This document shows, piece after piece, positions 29,104 to 39,033 of a stretch of 64,000 bases of DNA. How positions within the stretch are numbered: position 1 is the stretch's first letter; every line of letters begins with the position of its first letter. The notes under the pieces were generated by a model that did not search any database, was not told where the DNA came from, and worked only from the letters and a program-made list of their open reading frames with translations. The DNA lies in sequence record OP172791. One strand, 5' to 3'. This DNA is from Escherichia phage ECO340P1. The position numbers and the translations under genes were made by a program.

Positions 29104-29760
29104 ATGACTATTAAACATATCTCTTTTGATGTATGGAACACACTGATCACAGCAAACTCCAATTACGCAGACATGCGAGCCTGGACTATCGCAAAATATG
29201 GAGATATTACGGAAGTGGAAGCAAGAGCAGCTTATAAAAAGATCAAAAAGGAACTGGATAATGCAGCACTTCAAGGCAAAGCCGAGTGTGCAGCATACGC
29301 CTGGGAAAGACTTGGTTCTGAACTTGGGATAACACCTTGGAAGTCTGCAAAGCTTCGTTTCGAGTGTGAACAGTGGTTCCTTAAGTTTCCACCACACGTA
29401 GCCGTGGATCTGCCGATGTACTTGTTGTATCTTTCGGGGCGTTATGATTTGAGTATTAAGAGTAATACCAACTTCATATCAGGGGATATCCTGCGTCGTG
29501 CTTGTAAGTTTGATAGTTGGAATTGTTTTGAGTTCACCCATTTCTCGGATGAAGCTTTACTTTGTAAACCAGATCCGCGATTCTTTGCTCGCACGCTCAC
29601 GTATTCTCCGATCCCTCTGTTAGGGCACGAAGTATTGCACGTAGGAGATAGTGAAGAATATGATGGGAAATGTGTTGACTTAGGATTTAACTTCTGTCAT
29701 ATTAAGAACCCTAACGACTTACTAGAGAAACTTAAAAGAGGAGAAATTGTAAATGCGTAA
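29104..29760 (+). CDS. HAD-superfamily hydrolase-like protein
   Basis: N-terminal ISFDVWNTL (HAD motif I variant) and C-terminal LHVGDSEEYDGKCVDLG. Confidence 0.6.
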   Translation: MTIKHISFDVWNTLITANSNYADMRAWTIAKYGDITEVEARAAYKKIKKELDNAALQGKAECAAYAWERLGSELGITPWKSAKLRFECEQWFLKFPPHVAVDLPMYLLYLSGRYDLSIKSNTNFISGDILRRACKFDSWNCFEFTHFSDEALLCKPDPRFFARTLTYSPIPLLGHEVLHVGDSEEYDGKCVDLGFNFCHIKNPNDLLEKLKRGEIVNA

Positions 29761-30580
29761 TCAAACTCAAATTTTTGCAAATAAATTTGATGACCTGGAA
29801 GCTGCTACTTTTGATATCCAAGATTATTCAAAATTGAAATTTGGTAGTAACCAAGCTGCGCGTCGTATGGGTAAAGAATTGGCACTTCAGTTTTTTGCTC
29901 AAGTGGCAATGAAACATATTGGGGAACAATTTGTTATCATTCCTTCTCCTTACAACCATGTGCATAATGCTGCAACAATGATGACAGATCATTTTATTAA
30001 TTACTTTAATATGTTGCAATCACAATATGATCAAGGTCGTTCAGCAGAACTGGATATTATTCATCGTAAAGTTAGCTATATCAACGATTATGGTTTCTTG
30101 GATAAAGCTAGTCGTAAGAAACTTATTGATGGGGATACATTCTACTGCAACAAAGAATTCTGGGGTGATAAGAAGCTTGTGTTTATTGATGATGTAAATA
30201 TCACTGGAACTCATGAAGACAAACTGATTGAGATCCTTGATGAAAATCAAGTTAAAAATGATGTTTACTTCCTGTATTTTGCAAAATATGAAGGTAATCA
30301 AGCAGATACCGAAGCTAAACTGAATTTTAACTACATTAATACACCGGAAGCGTTTGTTAAAATGATTAATGAAGAACGTGATGCACAGTGTCTTGTTCGT
30401 CCTATTAAGTATCTTATGGGCCAAAATCATGAAGACTTCAAAATCATTCTTAGCCAATTGCCACATTACTATGTAGAGCAACTTTTCTTTGGATGCTTGG
30501 GAGAAGGTTACAACCGAATTTCAAAGTATGCTGAAAACTTTGAATTCTTGGATCGTTACACAAAACAACACATTCTGTAA
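29753..30580 (+). CDS. phosphoribosyltransferase (PRTase type I fold) protein
   Basis: PRPP-binding signature KLVFIDDVNITGTHE. Confidence 0.65.
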   Translation: MRNQTQIFANKFDDLEAATFDIQDYSKLKFGSNQAARRMGKELALQFFAQVAMKHIGEQFVIIPSPYNHVHNAATMMTDHFINYFNMLQSQYDQGRSAELDIIHRKVSYINDYGFLDKASRKKLIDGDTFYCNKEFWGDKKLVFIDDVNITGTHEDKLIEILDENQVKNDVYFLYFAKYEGNQADTEAKLNFNYINTPEAFVKMINEERDAQCLVRPIKYLMGQNHEDFKIILSQLPHYYVEQLFFGCLGEGYNRISKYAENFEFLDRYTKQHIL

Positions 30581-30593
30581 TAAGGAGCTAAAA

Positions 30594-31067
30594 ATGCTTA
30601 AAATGAAAACAGGTAATCTTATTGATGCCGCTAAAGCAGGTGAAGTAACTGTTATTGCTCATTGTTGCAACTGTATGTGTAATATGGGGGCAGGTATTGC
30701 CCCACAAATCAAACAAGCATTTCCTTACGCATATGCAGCAGACTTAGACACAATGGCTGGTGATCAAAGTAAACTAGGTTGTTTTAGTTTAGGGGTGCCA
30801 GACGAACAATCAGACCCTTTGGTATATAATCTATACGGGCAATACCGTTACGGATACAATGCTAAAGGTCGTCAGTTGGACTATGATGCACTTTACGATG
30901 CACTAATAGCTATGGCTAACGATTTGCTTCTCCGTGACCAAAAATGTAAGATCGGCTTACCTATGATTGGCGCTGGATATGCTGGAGGTAATTGGGCTAT
31001 CATCCAAGTGATGATTGAAGAAACTTTAGTAAAAACAGGTCACGATGTGACTATTTATAAACTTTAA
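30594..31067 (+). CDS. macro domain (ADP-ribose binding/processing) protein
   Basis: ATG 30594 with SD TAAGGAG; motifs VIAHCCNCMCNMGAGIA and LPMIGAGYAGGNW. Confidence 0.6.
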   Translation: MLKMKTGNLIDAAKAGEVTVIAHCCNCMCNMGAGIAPQIKQAFPYAYAADLDTMAGDQSKLGCFSLGVPDEQSDPLVYNLYGQYRYGYNAKGRQLDYDALYDALIAMANDLLLRDQKCKIGLPMIGAGYAGGNWAIIQVMIEETLVKTGHDVTIYKL

Positions 31068-31079
31068 GAGGAGATTAGT

Positions 31080-31301
31080 ATGGGTGTTTTTGCAGGTATT
31101 GTTGCAGTGGTAAGCTTTTTTGTTATTGCTTTTATGCTTAGTTTGATTCCAGCTTGGTTACTGTTGCTGGCTTACAACTATGTTGCTGAAGTTATGGGTC
31201 ATGCAGATATCACTGTCCCAGTAACCTTCTGGACCGTGGTTTGTGTTTCGTTTATTCTGGCTGTATTACGAGGAATCTTTTCCTCTCATTCAACAAAATA
31301 A
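31080..31301 (+). CDS. small membrane protein (73 aa)
   Basis: SD AAGAGGAG; two predicted transmembrane segments. Confidence 0.5.
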   Translation: MGVFAGIVAVVSFFVIAFMLSLIPAWLLLLAYNYVAEVMGHADITVPVTFWTVVCVSFILAVLRGIFSSHSTK

Positions 31302-31304
31302 GTG

Positions 31305-31363
31305 TTGACATAGTTCTTAAAAAGAGTAAGATATATCACATGAAGCGGGGAATAGTTCCCCGC
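31305..31363 (+). promoter_or_regulatory. promoter-hairpin cassette (plus-strand copy) for TerC gene
   Basis: TTGACA 31305-31310, N16, TAAGAT 31327-31332, hairpin GCGGGGAA-TAG-TTCCCCGC 31345-31363, then SD GAGAGGAGAAAAG. Confidence 0.6.
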
Positions 31364-31380
31364 AAAGAGAGGAGAAAAGA

Positions 31381-32355
31381 ATGCAACTTGGTTTCCCAAT
31401 TATTGATGTAGTTGTTTTAGTTGGTATTTTAGCATTGTCTATTGGTATTGATTTCTTTGGTCACAAAGAAAATAAAGAAATTTCATTCAAATCCGCAGTT
31501 GGTTGGTCGATCTTTTGGATTGGTGTATCATTAGCTTATTATGGTTTTGTATACTTCCAACATGGTGCCGATTTTGCTAACTTGTTTTTAAGTGGATATG
31601 TGTTGGAAAAATCTTTGTCGGTAGATAACTTGGTAGTATTTGTAGCAGTATTCGCAAGTTTTGGTATTAAAAGCACACACTTGCAGCACAAAATTCTACT
31701 TTGGGGTATTGCAGGTGCGATTGTCTTCCGAGGTGTGTTTGTAGCAGTAGGCACTTACTTGTTAAGTTTGGGCTGGTATGTTAATATCTTCTTCGGTGCG
31801 GTCATCCTTTTCTGTGCAGCTAAAATGGTATTTGCTGGAGATAATGACGCAGAAGTTGATTACTCTAAACACTGGGCTACCCGTATTGTTCGTAAACTGT
31901 TCCCTGTATCTAATAAAATGGATGGGGAGAAGTTCTTCACAATCGAAAATGGTGTTCGTGTAGCAACTCCAGCTTTGGTTTGCGTATTCGTGATGGAAAT
32001 GGTTGATGTAATCTTTGCAGTAGATTCTGTTCCGGCAGTGATCGCAGTAACACAAGAACCTCTGCTTGTATTCTCTTCGATGTTATGTGCAATCTTAGGT
32101 CTACGTGCTCTGTTCTTTGTTCTTAGTGTTGCACTGAAGTATCTGGTTCACTTGGAGAAAGCAGTTATTGTGGTTCTGGTGTTTGTAGGTGTTAAACTAA
32201 TGTATCACCCGTTTGCAGAAACGTTACATGAAAAAATGAGCTTCCTGCCAGCGCACATTGATCCAACTATTAGTATGTATATTGTCCTGGGCACATTAGC
32301 TCTTGGTGTTATTGCAAGCTTTATCTTCCCTGAAAAAGAAGAAGCTACTGTTTAA
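31381..32355 (+). CDS. TerC-family integral membrane protein
   Basis: Multiple TM segments; motifs VLEKSLSVDNLVVF and EMVDVIFAVDSVPAVIAV; own promoter-hairpin cassette; terminator downstream. Confidence 0.8.
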   Translation: MQLGFPIIDVVVLVGILALSIGIDFFGHKENKEISFKSAVGWSIFWIGVSLAYYGFVYFQHGADFANLFLSGYVLEKSLSVDNLVVFVAVFASFGIKSTHLQHKILLWGIAGAIVFRGVFVAVGTYLLSLGWYVNIFFGAVILFCAAKMVFAGDNDAEVDYSKHWATRIVRKLFPVSNKMDGEKFFTIENGVRVATPALVCVFVMEMVDVIFAVDSVPAVIAVTQEPLLVFSSMLCAILGLRALFFVLSVALKYLVHLEKAVIVVLVFVGVKLMYHPFAETLHEKMSFLPAHIDPTISMYIVLGTLALGVIASFIFPEKEEATV

Positions 32356-33980: not shown

Positions 33981-34571
33981 ATGCATACCGAGAGAGACTT
34001 GCAACTCTTGTGGTGGGAAGTGATGCAGGAAATAAAAGAAGATTTTCCTGTTTACTACAACATGTTACGTGAAGCAGGATATAAAGCTTGTGTTAGAAAC
34101 AAAGTGAATAACTCTTTCGGTTGGTGCAACTACCGAGATAAAATTGTTGTTGTAAATTGGCACTTGCATAAGAACTCCACAAGAGATATGATCGTGGATA
34201 CAATGAAGCACGAAATTGCTCATGCTATTGATGGTTGTATGGGTAAGTTTAGTAGGCACGGTGCTCATTGGCAAAAACTGGCAGCAGAATTAGGGGCTAA
34301 TCCTAAAGCCACTTCCAAAGAGCCGTTGAACCACGAATATAAATATGTTCTTGTTCTGGTAGATAGGTTTGCGACAAGATGTGTTAGAGGTTATAATCGT
34401 AAACCTAATCGCATGTACCCAGGTAAGCAACCTAATATGTGGTTGAAATCAGATAAAGAAGGGACCGAAGGAAAATTATGGTTGTATAAATGGGACGATT
34501 GGGTTAAAGTAGCTAAAGAGTACGGTGTTTCACCATATATAAGAGATGCAGAAGAGGAGAATGAAGAATGA
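33981..34571 (+). CDS. SprT-like zinc metallopeptidase domain protein
   Basis: HExxH motif in context MKHEIAHAIDG. Confidence 0.6.
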   Translation: MHTERDLQLLWWEVMQEIKEDFPVYYNMLREAGYKACVRNKVNNSFGWCNYRDKIVVVNWHLHKNSTRDMIVDTMKHEIAHAIDGCMGKFSRHGAHWQKLAAELGANPKATSKEPLNHEYKYVLVLVDRFATRCVRGYNRKPNRMYPGKQPNMWLKSDKEGTEGKLWLYKWDDWVKVAKEYGVSPYIRDAEEENEE

Positions 34572-35680
34572 CAAGTCCATTTTTAAAAGCAGCTACTGGT
34601 GGTCAGAAGAAGCCTGAAATGAGCGTATTTGCTGCAACAACAGATGCAAGTAAATCTGTATTCGCTCCAAGCGTGTTAGATGCCAGTCCTGTTTATGCAC
34701 CAGCGGCACCGCAAGAAGTTCCAGTTTTGCCTTCTATGACCCGACAAGAGATTGAAGAGATTGGGGCAGAGGCAGGAACAACCTTGCGTTCCTTGAATGC
34801 CGAGGTGTTAAAACATCAACGTAGTAATCAAGGCGATCAGATGAGTGAACGACTCACAGCTTTGATTAAACAGGCAAAACAACTTGATCCAAACTCTATT
34901 AAACAAAGCAAGGGTATTACTAAACTCATTAAAAAAGTTATGGGTATGAAAGAAGACCTGTTCGGGGAGTTTGATAATGTTAATAACCGTATTGAAGAGT
35001 TGGTAAAGAACCTTCAAATGGATATTCGCAAAGAAGAAGATTCCTTGGTATATCTTGAAAAGCTGCATCAAGCTATTGGACAATATGCTGCAAGTTTGAA
35101 CCGAGATATGCAGCTTCTAACAGCAACCTATGAAAAAGAAGAACAAGCTTTGGCTGCTCTTCCAGAAGATGCAGTAGAACAGCGACAAGTGATCCGAGAT
35201 ACTTTGGATCTTCTGGAGATTCGTATTGCAGATTTAAAAGCATTGCGCCTACTGTGTGTCCAAATGGGACCGCGTGTACAAGGTATGCAAAAAGTTTCTG
35301 CAAGCTTAATGCGATCTGCGCGTAACATAGTAAATAATGTTATTCCTGCTTACTCTGCTAACTTCTCAATGTATATCGAGAGCTTACGTCAAATGAAAGC
35401 AGCAGAGACGCAGAATAACGTTCTTGATGAATTTAACCTGGCAATTAAACTGGGTAGCGATCTTGCCACACAGAATCAGATCGAAGCAGCAGCACTGGCT
35501 AACCGTCAAGTGTTGGATATTGAAACTCTGCGTCACGATCAGGAAAACTTGGTTAAGATGCTGGAAGAAACTAACCGCATCAATACGGAAGCCCGTGCTG
35601 CTCGTGTTGATTATATTAATGAAGTTCAATCTCTGGAAGACGGGATGGTAGCTGCTGTGAAACGAGGGCTTGGTAAATGA
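34568..35680 (+). CDS. coiled-coil protein, TelA/KlaA-like (tentative)
   Basis: Long helical Leu/Glu/Gln-rich protein; family assignment is from memory of TelA pattern and genomic context. Confidence 0.55.
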   Translation: MTSPFLKAATGGQKKPEMSVFAATTDASKSVFAPSVLDASPVYAPAAPQEVPVLPSMTRQEIEEIGAEAGTTLRSLNAEVLKHQRSNQGDQMSERLTALIKQAKQLDPNSIKQSKGITKLIKKVMGMKEDLFGEFDNVNNRIEELVKNLQMDIRKEEDSLVYLEKLHQAIGQYAASLNRDMQLLTATYEKEEQALAALPEDAVEQRQVIRDTLDLLEIRIADLKALRLLCVQMGPRVQGMQKVSASLMRSARNIVNNVIPAYSANFSMYIESLRQMKAAETQNNVLDEFNLAIKLGSDLATQNQIEAAALANRQVLDIETLRHDQENLVKMLEETNRINTEARAARVDYINEVQSLEDGMVAAVKRGLGK

Positions 35681-36047: not shown

Positions 36048-36243
36048 CTACGAGAACGACCCTAACATTATCCAGTTAACTCGACAAGAACTGATCACAA
36101 TCATGGAAGATGCTTTTATCGATGGGTGGAAGACTCAAAACTATGATTGGAGTGGCCCAGAAGACTTTCTGCGTCTTCATAAAGAGTATGACGAGTCCAG
36201 TGAGACGACTATTGCCATTGACGATCTTAAGGCAGGTGTATAA
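36040..36243 (+). CDS. hypothetical protein (67 aa)
   Basis: ORF with SD AGAGGAGGGAG. Confidence 0.5.
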   Translation: MFNYENDPNIIQLTRQELITIMEDAFIDGWKTQNYDWSGPEDFLRLHKEYDESSETTIAIDDLKAGV

Positions 36244-36812
36244 TGGGTTGCTTTAGTTTTCTGTGTAAGGAGTCGGGCAAAGCTGCCCTCTCCACCTCTT
36301 TCGATGGATCTCCTTGTTATCTCTTTCTACTGAAAGATGGAAAGGTTATCGAAGAGATGCACGGCAATTATGATAGTTATGGGCGTGTCTTCTCCAGTAA
36401 GCAGGATGCTCACGGGAACAGAGAAAGCTTTAAATGGACTATACCTTGGAGCGACGTTTGTGATCTTATGTTCTCTGTAAACCGTGGAGACGGTATTGCT
36501 ATGGTTTTAGCAGAACACTTTACAGGAGAAGCCCCCACAGAACGATCCGAGGATGATCCTAATCAAGGTTGGGGAGACGGAGACGGAGAAGAAGAAGAGG
36601 ATTATTTCTACAGCACCGAAAATAATATTTTCAAACGTGTTGACAACCCTTATCATAAAGTGCATAATGTCCTCACTGAAACAGAAGACGACAAAATGGA
36701 AATTGAAGAAGATGATCCTCTTGTAACACTTCCTATAAGTGAGTTACAAAAGATCACTAAGGAAGCTTACGATTTGGGCTTCAAAATTGGTAGAGGAGGT
36801 ATGCGTGTTTAG
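36243..36812 (+). CDS. acidic hypothetical protein (189 aa)
   Basis: ORF; acidic stretch GDGDGEEEEDY. Confidence 0.55.
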   Translation: MGCFSFLCKESGKAALSTSFDGSPCYLFLLKDGKVIEEMHGNYDSYGRVFSSKQDAHGNRESFKWTIPWSDVCDLMFSVNRGDGIAMVLAEHFTGEAPTERSEDDPNQGWGDGDGEEEEDYFYSTENNIFKRVDNPYHKVHNVLTETEDDKMEIEEDDPLVTLPISELQKITKEAYDLGFKIGRGGMRV

Positions 36813-37083
36813 ATTCAATATTCAAGAAGAAAAAAGTCAAGATTTACCTATTGCTTTCGAAGATCTTGACGTAGGGGCAACATTCATGTATTATGATGCC
36901 TATGAAGACGCAGGGTTGGATACCTACCGTAACTTGGTGTTCATTAAAAATTCCACAAACAGTGCGATTTGTATTAATGGATCACTAGCACAACGAGGCT
37001 ATACTCATTGCATCCCACCAGATACAAATATGGTGGAAGTAGATTTAGAAGTTACCAATATTACACTTAAGAAGGAGAAATAA
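36805..37083 (+). CDS. small protein, paralog of 38105-38374 (GTG start)
   Basis: GTG five nt after SD GAGGAGG; shared motif DLDVG.TF.Y..A..E.GLD. Confidence 0.45.
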   Translation: MFRFNIQEEKSQDLPIAFEDLDVGATFMYYDAYEDAGLDTYRNLVFIKNSTNSAICINGSLAQRGYTHCIPPDTNMVEVDLEVTNITLKKEK

Positions 37084-37084
37084 T

Positions 37085-37879
37085 ATGTCCGAGAAAATCA
37101 GCCTGAAAAAACGTCAAGAAAACCTTGCTTTCTCTCTGAAAAAGAATAAGAACCTGAATGAAGGTAAGATTGTTCTTCGTGTAGCATGTGCTCTAGATAT
37201 TTCTGGTAGTATGCATGGTCTATATTCTAGTGGGGTAGTGAGTGATTTTGTAGGTAAACTGCTTCCTTTTGGTATGCTGTTCGACGATAATCAACAAATT
37301 GATATGTGGGCCTTCAATACGAGTTCCCAAGAGCTTACTCCAGCAACAGCAGACGTTTACGATGACTATGTTGGTAAATGTATGCGTAATGTTCGTATCG
37401 GAGGTGGAACAAATTACGCCCCTGTAATGGCAGATATCTACGATGAGTATTTTGGCACTGTTACCAAATATATTACCACTAAACAAGTGGTACAAGAGGA
37501 GGCTCCAAAGAAAGGCTTCTTTAATCGTCTGCTTGGTAAAACTGAAACAGTGTCTGTAGAGCGTGAAAAAGTTGTAGCTGTATCTGAACCAGGTGCTGAC
37601 GTTACCCCTGGTGTTGTATTCTTCCAGACGGATGGTGAGAATGGTGATCCTAGTGCTGTTCGTCGTCTTATTGAAGAGAATAAGAATAAACCTATTTATT
37701 GGTTCATGGTTGGCGTTGGTAATGAGAAGTTTGGGTTCCTGAAAGAACTGGCAAATGCTTATGATAATGTTGGTTTTATTGGCATTAAAGATTTAGACTT
37801 GACAGATTCAGAGCTTTATGACAAACTCTTATCTGAGGAGTTCGGAGAGTGGGTTGTTAAAGTAGGTGCTAAAAAATGA
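37085..37879 (+). CDS. von Willebrand factor type A (vWA) domain protein, TerY-like
   Basis: MIDAS motif LDISGSMHG, GGTNYAP, FFQTDGENGD; N-terminal KISLKK repeat like TerD N-terminus. Confidence 0.7.
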   Translation: MSEKISLKKRQENLAFSLKKNKNLNEGKIVLRVACALDISGSMHGLYSSGVVSDFVGKLLPFGMLFDDNQQIDMWAFNTSSQELTPATADVYDDYVGKCMRNVRIGGGTNYAPVMADIYDEYFGTVTKYITTKQVVQEEAPKKGFFNRLLGKTETVSVEREKVVAVSEPGADVTPGVVFFQTDGENGDPSAVRRLIEENKNKPIYWFMVGVGNEKFGFLKELANAYDNVGFIGIKDLDLTDSELYDKLLSEEFGEWVVKVGAKK

Positions 37880-38124
37880 TCGACGAGCTTGCCTCTCAAG
37901 TCATAGAAAATTATTGGCGCGAGAGAGAAGCTTTCATTATGCGCAGTCTCAAAGAGTATTTCATTGGGACTGTGCGAATGGAAGATATTGTAAGTAGAGT
38001 GGAGATTCATGTATGGCCCGATTATGAAGAATGGGTTGACAAAGAAAATGAAAATGCTATAATTCTTCGTATATACAAACCGGAGATAACATTAGGAGGA
38101 AGAAGTGTTAAACTTCGAAATTGA
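37876..38124 (+). CDS. hypothetical protein (82 aa)
   Basis: ORF with ATGA overlap. Confidence 0.45.
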   Translation: MIDELASQVIENYWREREAFIMRSLKEYFIGTVRMEDIVSRVEIHVWPDYEEWVDKENENAIILRIYKPEITLGGRSVKLRN

Positions 38125-38374
38125 TGAGCAAAAAGTAAATAAACGATGCCTTACCATTAAAGATTTGGATGTAGGAGATACTTTCGTCTATGAAAATGCA
38201 TTTGACGAAAATGGTTTAGACCTTAGTGAAATCATTGTTTATTTAAAAGTAGATGATGGGGAAAATGATTATTCTGCTGTAGAACTAAACCATCATGCAC
38301 AATTAGTATCAATCCAAAACACATCTAAGCTTTTGGAAGTAGAATTGACTGTAACTGGTATTACACTTAAATAA
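38105..38374 (+). CDS. small protein, paralog of 36805-37083 (GTG start)
   Basis: GTG after SD GGAGGAAG; paralogous sequence. Confidence 0.45.
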   Translation: MLNFEIDEQKVNKRCLTIKDLDVGDTFVYENAFDENGLDLSEIIVYLKVDDGENDYSAVELNHHAQLVSIQNTSKLLEVELTVTGITLK

Positions 38375-38389
38375 TAGAGGAGACAAAAG

Positions 38390-38992
38390 ATGACTGATAA
38401 AATTTCCCTGAAAAAAGGCTCTAGCGAAAAAATTTCCCTGAAGAAAGTTGCTCCGGCTCTGAAAGAACTGCGCCTGGAATTCTCTTGGAAATCTGATTCT
38501 AAACTGGATCTGGATGTAAGTGCACTGGTTTGTCGTCACAATGCCGCTGGTAATCCTGAAATGCTGTCTGCACGTCATCTGGTTTGCTATGCTAACAAGT
38601 TTGATCCTGAACGTTCTACCTTCGCTGGTGACGATGTTCGTGATGGAACTGGCAGCATGGAGCAGATTGATATTACTCTGGCTAAAATCTCTCCTGATGC
38701 ACAAGAGATTGCCTTTGTTCTGACCATTGATGATGATACAGGTCTGAAACGTTTTGGTCATGCTTCTGAAGGTATGCTTAAAATCTTCGACTCCGAGCGC
38801 AATGTGGAAATTCTGGATTTTGACTTCCTGGCTCCTGAAGTAGCTGGCAACACAATCTGCCACGTGGCTTCCTTGGTTCGTGAAGATGGGGAATGGAAGC
38901 TGAAAGCATATGGTGTAGGTAAAGCTGGTCTGGATATTTGTGATGTGGTGATGGCCTTCGGTGGTAAAAAAGAATGGTATGAATGTCCATAA
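38390..38992 (+). CDS. TerD-domain protein
   Basis: N-terminal KISLKKGSSEKISLKK, DLDVSALV, acidic-loop GDDVRDGTGSMEQIDI, C-terminal WKLKAYGVG match TerD family pattern. Confidence 0.8.
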   Translation: MTDKISLKKGSSEKISLKKVAPALKELRLEFSWKSDSKLDLDVSALVCRHNAAGNPEMLSARHLVCYANKFDPERSTFAGDDVRDGTGSMEQIDITLAKISPDAQEIAFVLTIDDDTGLKRFGHASEGMLKIFDSERNVEILDFDFLAPEVAGNTICHVASLVREDGEWKLKAYGVGKAGLDICDVVMAFGGKKEWYECP

Positions 38993-39010: not shown

Positions 39011-39033
39011 GAGGGGGAGAAATCCCCCTCTTG
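39011..39033 (+). terminator. possible terminator hairpin after TerD gene
   Basis: GAGGGGGA-GAAA-TCCCCCTC stem with only a short T tail. Confidence 0.4.

Follow-up and report, generated by a model that had tools for sequence, protein, structure and literature searches.

Results

Genes and features at the locus

The window analysed here is a stretch of 64,000 nucleotides (nt) from Escherichia phage ECO340P1 (sequence record OP172791), and our subject is a group of adjoining genes within it: two small paralogous genes (s1 and s2), a gene for a vWA-TerF-like protein (vWA below), a further small gene (orf82) and a gene for a TerD protein, all on the same strand (Table 1). To judge from its sequence, the run from s1 to TerD lies at the distal end of a Ter (tellurite-resistance-type) module carried by the phage, a kind of module already known. 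Over the 4.6 kb around s1-TerD, dozens of Phapecoctavirus genomes (phAPEC8-like, Stephanstirmvirinae coliphages) match at 95-97% identity, and the window is accordingly that of a Phapecoctavirus-like coliphage.

Table 1. Positions of the genes and sequence features discussed, numbered from the first letter of the window
Feature	Position	Strand	Basis or remarks
HAD	29104-29760	+	Pfam, weak, under gathering threshold
PRTase_3 (ComF-like phosphoribosyltransferase, PRTase)	29753-30580	+	Pfam
Macro	30489-31067	+	Pfam, weak, under gathering threshold
TerC	31381-32355	+	Pfam
SprT-like	33981-34571	+	Pfam
TelA	34568-35680	+	Pfam
189-aa (amino acid) gene, 5' neighbour of s1	start 36243	+	P1 inside
P1, TTGACA-17-CATAAT, 11/12	36640-36668	+	consensus match only; inside 189-aa gene
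s1, small acidic paralog, 92 aa, isoelectric point (pI) 4.4	36805-37083	+	GTG start, GGAGG at 36795-36799
vWA-TerF-like protein, 264 aa, metal ion-dependent adhesion site (MIDAS) DISGS	37085-37879	+	PF10138, 130.1 bits
vWA hxLxK...hxLxK motif, residues 4-20, KISLKKRQENLAFSLKK	37094-37144	+	homolog alignment
vWA β-arm, residues 125-169	37457-37591	+	predicted, AlphaFold2 (AF2)
orf82, 82 aa, phrog_22387	37876-38124	+	start overlaps vWA stop (ATGA)
P2, extended σ70 TTGACA-N16(TG)-TATAAT, 12/12	38036-38063	+	consensus match; inside orf82
s2, small acidic paralog, 89 aa, pI 4.3	38105-38374	+	GTG start, GGAGG at 38095-38099
TerD protein, 200 aa	38390-38992	+	PF02342, 98.9 bits
TerD hxLxK-turn-hxLxK motif, residues 4-19, KISLKKGSSEKISLKK	38399-38446	+	canonical strands β1-β2
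GC-rich hairpin after TerD	39011-39030	+	8-bp stem, -17.2 kcal/mol, z=-3.05

Two small paralogous genes

An original prediction, made from the letters of this DNA, had described s1 and s2 as paralogs that share the pattern DLDVG.TF.Y..A..E.GLD and start on GTG directly behind a GGAGG Shine-Dalgarno sequence. Each of these observations was borne out. BLASTP aligned the two proteins over their full length (34% identity, E=2e-14), both carry the pattern, and both matched the whole of the phrog_11278 profile (4.2e-51 for s1 and 7e-45 for s2). Both GTG codons lie exactly 5 nt past GGAGG, and these starts are supported by homologs in other phages, which have ATG at the residue aligned with GTG. Since the differences between ortholog pairs are in excess at third codon positions, s1 and s2 were taken as real coding genes.

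Residues F4, G24, F27, G37 and L38 are invariant in the small-protein family, whose pattern is kept down to 23% identity, and all of the copies that precede vWA end in a K/R-K/E-E-K tail encoding AGGAG. No Pfam family was matched by s1 or s2. While a word-index homolog search with s2 gave near-identical sequences only, the family was recovered by an exhaustive search of 1.84 billion representative proteins with a profile of s1 and s2, which returned 17 matches at E≤0.001. Most of these are family members of ~54-93 aa; four others come from giant proteins that match weakly and repeatedly. The latter (P0005, 2389 aa; P0013, 3274 aa; P0014; P0016) cover only profile positions ~17-31 (DLDVGDTF-like) in up to 22 repeats, and are most likely an unrelated repeat motif and not homologs. 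No cultured relative was found by tblastn with an outgroup family member. The family is tiny, evolves fast, consists of acidic proteins of ~90 aa and is confined to phages.

N-terminal motifs of the vWA-TerF-like and TerD proteins

The vWA protein matched PF10138 in two stretches, well above the cut-off of 29.4 bits. In an alignment of 40 homologs its MIDAS motif DISGS falls at residues 38-42, with D38, S42, T109 and D183 invariant and S40 conserved in at least 90%. The AF2 model has a mean predicted local distance difference test (pLDDT) score of 90.9, and a Foldseek search with it retrieved integrin I domains and copine/RGLG VWA domains (E ~1e-6). Inserted in this fold is a predicted long β-arm of two strands (E125-141 and E153-169), an arm that the integrin-type vWA domains retrieved by Foldseek do not have.

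The TerD protein matched PF02342 (cut-off 25.3 bits), its residues 5-179 covering profile positions 3-177 of 187, and a phmmer comparison with solved structures gave alignments from residue 5 to 2KXT (E=1.5e-15) and 3IBZ (E=2.9e-14). Aligned with 2KXT, the Klebsiella TerD, ISLKKGSSEKISLKK corresponds to VSLSKGG--NVSLSK, ldldvsa to FDLDASA and agdd.vrdgtgs to TGDNRTGEGDG. The paper describing the 2KXT structure reportedly shows that the acidic DLD.SA and GD..G segments of TerD bind Ca2+.

The N-termini of vWA and TerD read MSEKISLKKRQENLAFSLKK and MTDKISLKKGSSEKISLKK, with K-I-S-L-K-K common to both. That they share a repeated SLKK motif, as first proposed, is upheld by the six-frame translation of the window, in which [ILVFM]SLKK occurs five times, four of these at the vWA and TerD N-terminal sites. 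Alignment of the two N-termini was less clear-cut: by BLASTP the likeness is confined to the first 20-29 residues, where E values of 0.013-0.11 are marginal taken alone, and does not extend beyond them. Outside the ~20-residue motif the two proteins belong to unrelated families and folds.

The ISLKK starts are the canonical hxLxK motifs of the TerD and vWA-TerF-like proteins, and occur throughout either family. In TerD the domain itself begins with the motif, whose strands β1-β2 match residues 3-15 of 2KXT. In vWA the double hxLxK ahead of the core is a feature that we define from the homolog alignment, where L7, K9, L18 and K20 are each conserved in at least 90% of the 40 homologs, bacterial ones (e.g. 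Neobacillus) included. The hxLxK repeats are also found ahead of the vWA domain in stand-alone proteins of bacteria and in fusions of TerD with vWA. AF2 models residues 7-20 of vWA as a helix (pLDDT 75-94), yet the i, i+2, i+4 pattern of conservation is strand-like.

While the motif varies from lineage to lineage, the vWA and TerD N-termini of one genome resemble each other. Thus KISLKK is found in both proteins of this phage group, DVINLAK (vWA) and DTINLTK (TerD) in phage CcrColossus, LQFDLVK and LQFDLCK in an Acinetobacter phage, MAINLQK and MAINLEK in a Gallionellaceae metagenome-assembled genome (MAG), AFNLEK and TFNLEK in an Uhrbacteria MAG, and MLDLTK...ELNLEK and ELNLSK...MLDLTK in Pseudomonas phage M5.1. 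Across 19 lineages, extracted automatically and with vWA proteins mutually <60% identical, vWA and TerD of one genome agreed on average at 3.16 of 5 variable positions in their best match, against 1.31 of 5 for pairings between genomes, and none of 200,000 permutations attained the observed sum. The result was the same for 11 lineages curated by hand (0/100,000 permutations attaining the observed score). The loci that show the covariation are that of the window and L009, L011-L013, L020, L021, L031, L109-L114, L130 and L131.

Codon usage bears on how this likeness is kept. Among 71 identical residues in the vWA and TerD N-termini, 40 are encoded by the same codon and 31 by different ones; the two genes differ in their serine codon, for instance (AGC against TCC). 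Because 31 of the 71 differ in codon, the similarity is maintained at the protein level and not by recent gene conversion, which was ruled out as its source with just 40/71 codons shared. Most of the covariation loci are without a small gene, and the shared N-terminus is therefore not a by-product of the s1/s2 duplication; the expectation that the likeness would be confined to carriers of a small gene fails across the 19 lineages. Within each genome, then, the vWA and TerD N-termini co-evolve under selection on the protein, independently of the small genes.

Records with near-identical vWA genes came up under unexpected host names. MG065650.1, MG065689.1 and MG065639.1 ('Campylobacter phage'), OP562383.1 ('Acinetobacter phage') and L019 (a 'Proteobacteria bacterium' MAG) hold vWA genes 99-100% identical to that of the window, or phi92-type copies; the phi92-type copies of these genes are in the two 'Campylobacter phage' records MG065689.1 and MG065639.1. 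The host labels or binning of all five records are probably wrong.

Distribution and history of the small genes

To survey the distribution, all open reading frames (ORFs) of loci taken from cultured phages, from metagenomic contigs, from IMG/VR and from bacterial genomes were scanned with the family hidden Markov model. The family was present in 17 loci, and in 17/17 the small gene lies immediately upstream of a vWA-TerF-like or TerD gene, at a distance of no more than ~35 nt, even for family members with identities down to 23-30%. This survey upheld the described placement of the small genes directly before Ter-protein genes. The further proposal that each small gene and its Ter-protein gene make a contiguous pair holds for adjacency, s1 preceding vWA and s2 preceding TerD; the two pairs are nevertheless not contiguous with each other, since orf82, which the original prediction did not mention, lies between vWA and s2.

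The copies are not co-distributed as a duplicated cassette would have them. A copy before vWA only is found in phi92 (gp174), Klebsiella phage 05F01, L099 and L104, and a copy before TerD only (vWA - small - TerD) in the metagenomic phages L004-L008 and L100. Both copies are present in the window, in phiWec179/L096 and in SRR10902858_632 (L015/L017), always with an orf82 homolog between vWA and s2. Relatives with neither copy are Klebsiella phage KP13-26, L097 and L101-L108. Nor was the family found in the Ter modules examined in Caulobacter, Pseudomonas, Rhizobium, Acinetobacter and Bacillus phages, and vWA-TerD adjacency without small genes was the commoner state among the loci surveyed.

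The s1 protein of the window is 67% identical to phi92 gp174, its ortholog, and 34-38% identical to s2. As orthologs are so much closer to each other than are the paralogs, the s1/s2 duplication is, by this measure, old. In neighbour-joining (NJ) trees the pre-vWA copies were monophyletic and the three Phapecoctavirus-type s2 copies formed one clade, with the other pre-TerD copies basal and outside both. The ancestral small gene would probably have stood between vWA and TerD, as it does in the more distant relatives; one copying event may then have placed it before vWA, with either or both copies lost later in individual lineages. The small genes also evolve faster than their neighbours, with 44-67% identity against 68-91% for vWA and TerD in the same genome pairs.

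Organisation of the transcription units

The genes from s1 to TerD are tightly packed. The start of s1 overlaps the stop of the upstream 189-aa gene by 8 nt, the ATG of vWA is 1 nt past the s1 stop with its Shine-Dalgarno sequence inside the s1 3' end, s2 overlaps the 3' end of orf82 by 20 nt with its own 5' end, and TerD starts 15 nt beyond s2. These overlaps and short gaps would indicate translational coupling. The intervening gene orf82, found in two-copy lineages only, is 60% identical to its phiWec179 ortholog and has no significant similarity to the 189-aa gene upstream of s1 (E=0.36).

A promoter-like site precedes each small gene. P1 lies 137 nt from s1 and has hexamers identical to those in phi92 (L001 3836-3864); in phiWec179 an 11/12 site is found in the intergenic region preceding s1 (L002 2647-2675). 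P2 lies 42 nt from the s2 GTG and is the sole 12/12 site of the window, in which twelve promoter-like sites of at least 11/12 were counted against 3.1 expected. The 12/12 match with its TG extension is kept in 3/3 two-copy lineages (L002 3935-3962, L096 4955-4982, L017 6226-6253), and the orf82 residues overlapping it differ between the window and phiWec179 (L002), as V/I and AII/VIM. Other lineages have weaker promoter-like sites directly before TerD or before small-TerD.

Downstream of TerD, the GC-rich hairpin is likely to be the end of the transcription unit. It is without a T-run, and a scan for T-run terminators did not pick up the site; in the related record MZ726793 a 'terminator' is among the annotations listed somewhere under the 4.6-kb match as a whole. 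The locus could thus be read as two promoter-led, translationally coupled units, P1 driving s1 - vWA(TerF-like) - orf82 and P2 driving s2 - TerD up to the hairpin. The content of G and C at third codon positions (GC3) is 0.36 in TerD, which uses E. coli-preferred codons (many CTG, AAA and GAA), and 0.21 in s2 directly upstream. Such a contrast within one transcription unit may reflect expression demands, or histories, that are very different.

Predicted fold of the small proteins

From an AF2 model built on a 14-sequence alignment (pLDDT 86.8; predicted template modelling score 0.75), in which a helix and five strands are all short, the small protein is predicted to fold as an SH3-like small β-barrel. 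The best match of the s1 model in BFVD was an independent model of an 89-aa phAPEC8 protein, K7QLS7 (template modelling score 0.81-0.84), which we treated as the s2 ortholog from its length and its 34% identity to s1; the further BFVD matches were many uncharacterised small phage proteins. Compared with stand-alone SH3-like barrels (FeoA, the DtxR/IdeR C-terminal SH3-like domain, the ribosomal L2 SH3-like domain, KOW and HspQ/YccV), sequence identity was 4-13%, and the s1 model differs from barrels of the FeoA/DtxR/L2/KOW/HspQ type in an additional short helix behind strand 1. The likeness would thus be one of fold, and transfers no function. SH3-like barrels often bind short extended peptides. 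The net charge of the small proteins is -7 and -11, and that of the N-terminal 24-mers of vWA and TerD is +3.5 and +4.5.

The remainder of the Ter module

TerC, TelA, TerD and the TerF-type vWA, together with the PRTase and HAD genes, are co-located on one strand between 29104 and 38992, and all belong to the list of Ter-system components as applied to phages by Iyer et al. 2021 (PMC7824862). The HAD-like hydrolase, ComF-like PRTase, Macro protein and TerC genes at 29104-32355 (+ strand) correspond to the nucleoside-like metabolite arm of Ter systems; with these present, the ~150-kb phage therefore holds a nearly complete Ter system. No PADLOC model matched s1, s2, orf82 or the other proteins of the cluster put through it.

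Discussion

Our favoured reading, to which we give a probability of about 0.5, is that the locus is the distal end of a Ter module in which the old paralogs s1 and s2 serve as dispensable accessory subunits of the vWA-TerD pair. The two barrels would act as adaptors or chaperone-like binders of this pair, and may use their acidic surface to contact the KISLKK-type N-termini of this phage clade, which are strongly basic. The whole Ter module (TerD, MIDAS-vWA, TelA and TerC) is thought to be a submembrane Ca2+/metal-binding assembly (PMC7824862, PMC8386662), and its use to the phage may lie in excluding superinfecting phages or in homeostasis of the host envelope or of ions.

Several observations weigh against assigning the small proteins such a part. 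The family is absent from 33/37 IMG/VR loci, from 76/76 bacterial vWA-TerF-like loci and from the close relatives KP13-26, L097 and L101-L108, and the small gene is therefore not required for vWA-TerD function. A metagenomic protein of 55 aa (P0009) consists of residues 1-23 of the 189-aa protein encoded upstream, fused to the last 32 of s1, a layout that in the window would join 36243-36311 to 36985-37083 through an in-frame deletion of ~0.7 kb, with most of both genes gone; s1 and the 189-aa gene thus appear dispensable. All of the carriers are related phages, so that the adjacency to Ter-protein genes could stem from descent and local duplication. The bootstrap support of the deep branches in the NJ trees is 3-25%, and the ancestral position is thus a tentative one. 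The SH3-like match of the small-protein model is generic (Z of 5.1 or less) and implies no specific activity, and P1 and P2 are for their part known as consensus matches. At most, then, the small family would be a lineage-specific accessory.

Much of this evidence is also what would be expected if the small genes were unrelated passengers, for example host-takeover or otherwise dispensable early genes, that were placed by descent and tandem duplication. This is the main rival, which we consider less likely than the accessory role; it is kept alive by the patchy distribution of the genes and their fast evolution. Some close relatives have them and others do not, a deletion variant occurs naturally, they diverge faster than the neighbouring vWA and TerD genes, the carriers all fall in one related phage group, and phage genomes very often hold small β-barrel ORFs to which no function is assigned. 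However, passengers would not be expected to keep their adjacency to vWA or TerD in every carrier locus, nor to occupy two different insertion positions that are both inside the vWA-TerD pair. The overlaps and short gaps that suggest translational coupling, and the conserved perfect promoter that s2 shares with TerD in two-copy lineages, also speak against unrelated genes.

A further reading, and a rather improbable one, extends to Ter systems in general. Here the hxLxK-hxLxK element would be a shared docking tag, and the s1 and s2 barrels binders of its basic KISLKK version. TerD and vWA of one locus might then bind the same site, or each other through strand pairing or mimicry, with s1 and s2 as chaperones or regulators in enterobacterial Stephanstirmvirinae-like phages, one paralog for each client.

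It is very unlikely that the small ORFs are cis-acting translated leaders, which would tune the expression of vWA and TerD by coupling while the protein itself is unimportant. The vWA Shine-Dalgarno sequence inside the s1 3' end, with a stop-start gap of 1 nt, the AGGAG-encoding tail of all pre-vWA copies and the place of s2 between a strong promoter and TerD would suit such leaders. In contrast, the protein pattern is conserved to 23% identity with its five invariant residues, the predicted fold is confident and compact, and relatives have vWA and TerD without any leader ORF.

Least probable of all is the duplicated two-gene cassette of the original prediction, a small gene plus an ISLKK effector that was swapped between vWA and TerD and left the shared N-terminus as a remnant: for all that 83 nt (the small-gene 3' end, the Shine-Dalgarno sequence and the first 9 downstream codons) align at 70% (E=1e-6), that both units have the same GGAGG-5nt-GTG spacing and that each follows a strong promoter-like site, the cassette is already contradicted by the distribution data, the hxLxK motif is integral to each of two families with unrelated folds, the N-termini match already where a single small gene is present or there is none, and also in phages and bacteria that are unrelated and have other motif variants, vWA-TerD adjacency without small genes is common, the duplication is old, and orf82, without counterpart upstream of s1, interrupts the unit. 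The 83-nt match was rejected as evidence for a cassette, being explained by conserved peptide ends and the Shine-Dalgarno sequence, with differing synonymous codons (Ser AGC/TCC), and a wider duplication that includes the upstream gene found no support in the comparison of orf82 with the 189-aa gene. The order of promoter, small gene and Ter protein thus occurs twice, yet differs from a duplicated cassette. While the observation first made on this DNA is confirmed, its evolutionary interpretation was largely wrong; the partner role of the small proteins that it hinted at is plausible.

The window resembles the Ter modules described before for jumbo phages and other virulent phages (PMC7824862), including that of phage phiKp34, whose Ter genes have also been remarked on (PMC8386662), in having PRTase_3, HAD, TerC, TelA, vWA-TerF-like and TerD genes. 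It is unlike them in the position of TerC, which lies 5 kb upstream and not between vWA and TerD. The vWA-TerD linkage itself is common to Caulobacter, Pseudomonas, Rhizobium and Acinetobacter phages. In the window and its carrier relatives, one or two small SH3-like genes, and orf82 with its promoter, are found around vWA and TerD, whereas the other Ter loci examined have none. Bacterial fusions of the TerF type (TerD - linker - vWA; P0077-P0080) share with the window the vWA family and the hxLxK repeats directly ahead of it. Unlike these fusions, the phage has two separate genes, and its vWA keeps the ~20-residue motif only, without a TerD domain.

Bacterial Ter systems are said to be the subject of a 2012 study by Anantharaman, Iyer and Aravind. 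The small family itself is catalogued as phrog_11278, which includes phi92 gp174 and the phAPEC8 homologs and has no function annotated. Worked out here are the paralogy, the predicted SH3-like fold, the fixed position, the copy-number history, the orf82 promoter and, above all, the N-terminal covariation. The fold, copy-number history, orf82 promoter and covariation were not found in the literature searched, a scope outside which Anantharaman et al. 2012 lies.

Bacteria, plasmids and phages widely carry Ter systems, whose mechanism is poorly understood; no assembly model exists for TerD, TerF-type vWA, TelA and TerC. The locus offers two experimental handles on them; if neither holds, it would be a lineage-specific elaboration of the known phage Ter module. 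One is the covariation, which singles out a stretch of ~20 residues as a candidate determinant of interaction or recognition. The other is a small and easily expressed barrel protein that is genetically tied to vWA and TerD in coliphages able to grow on E. coli K-12.

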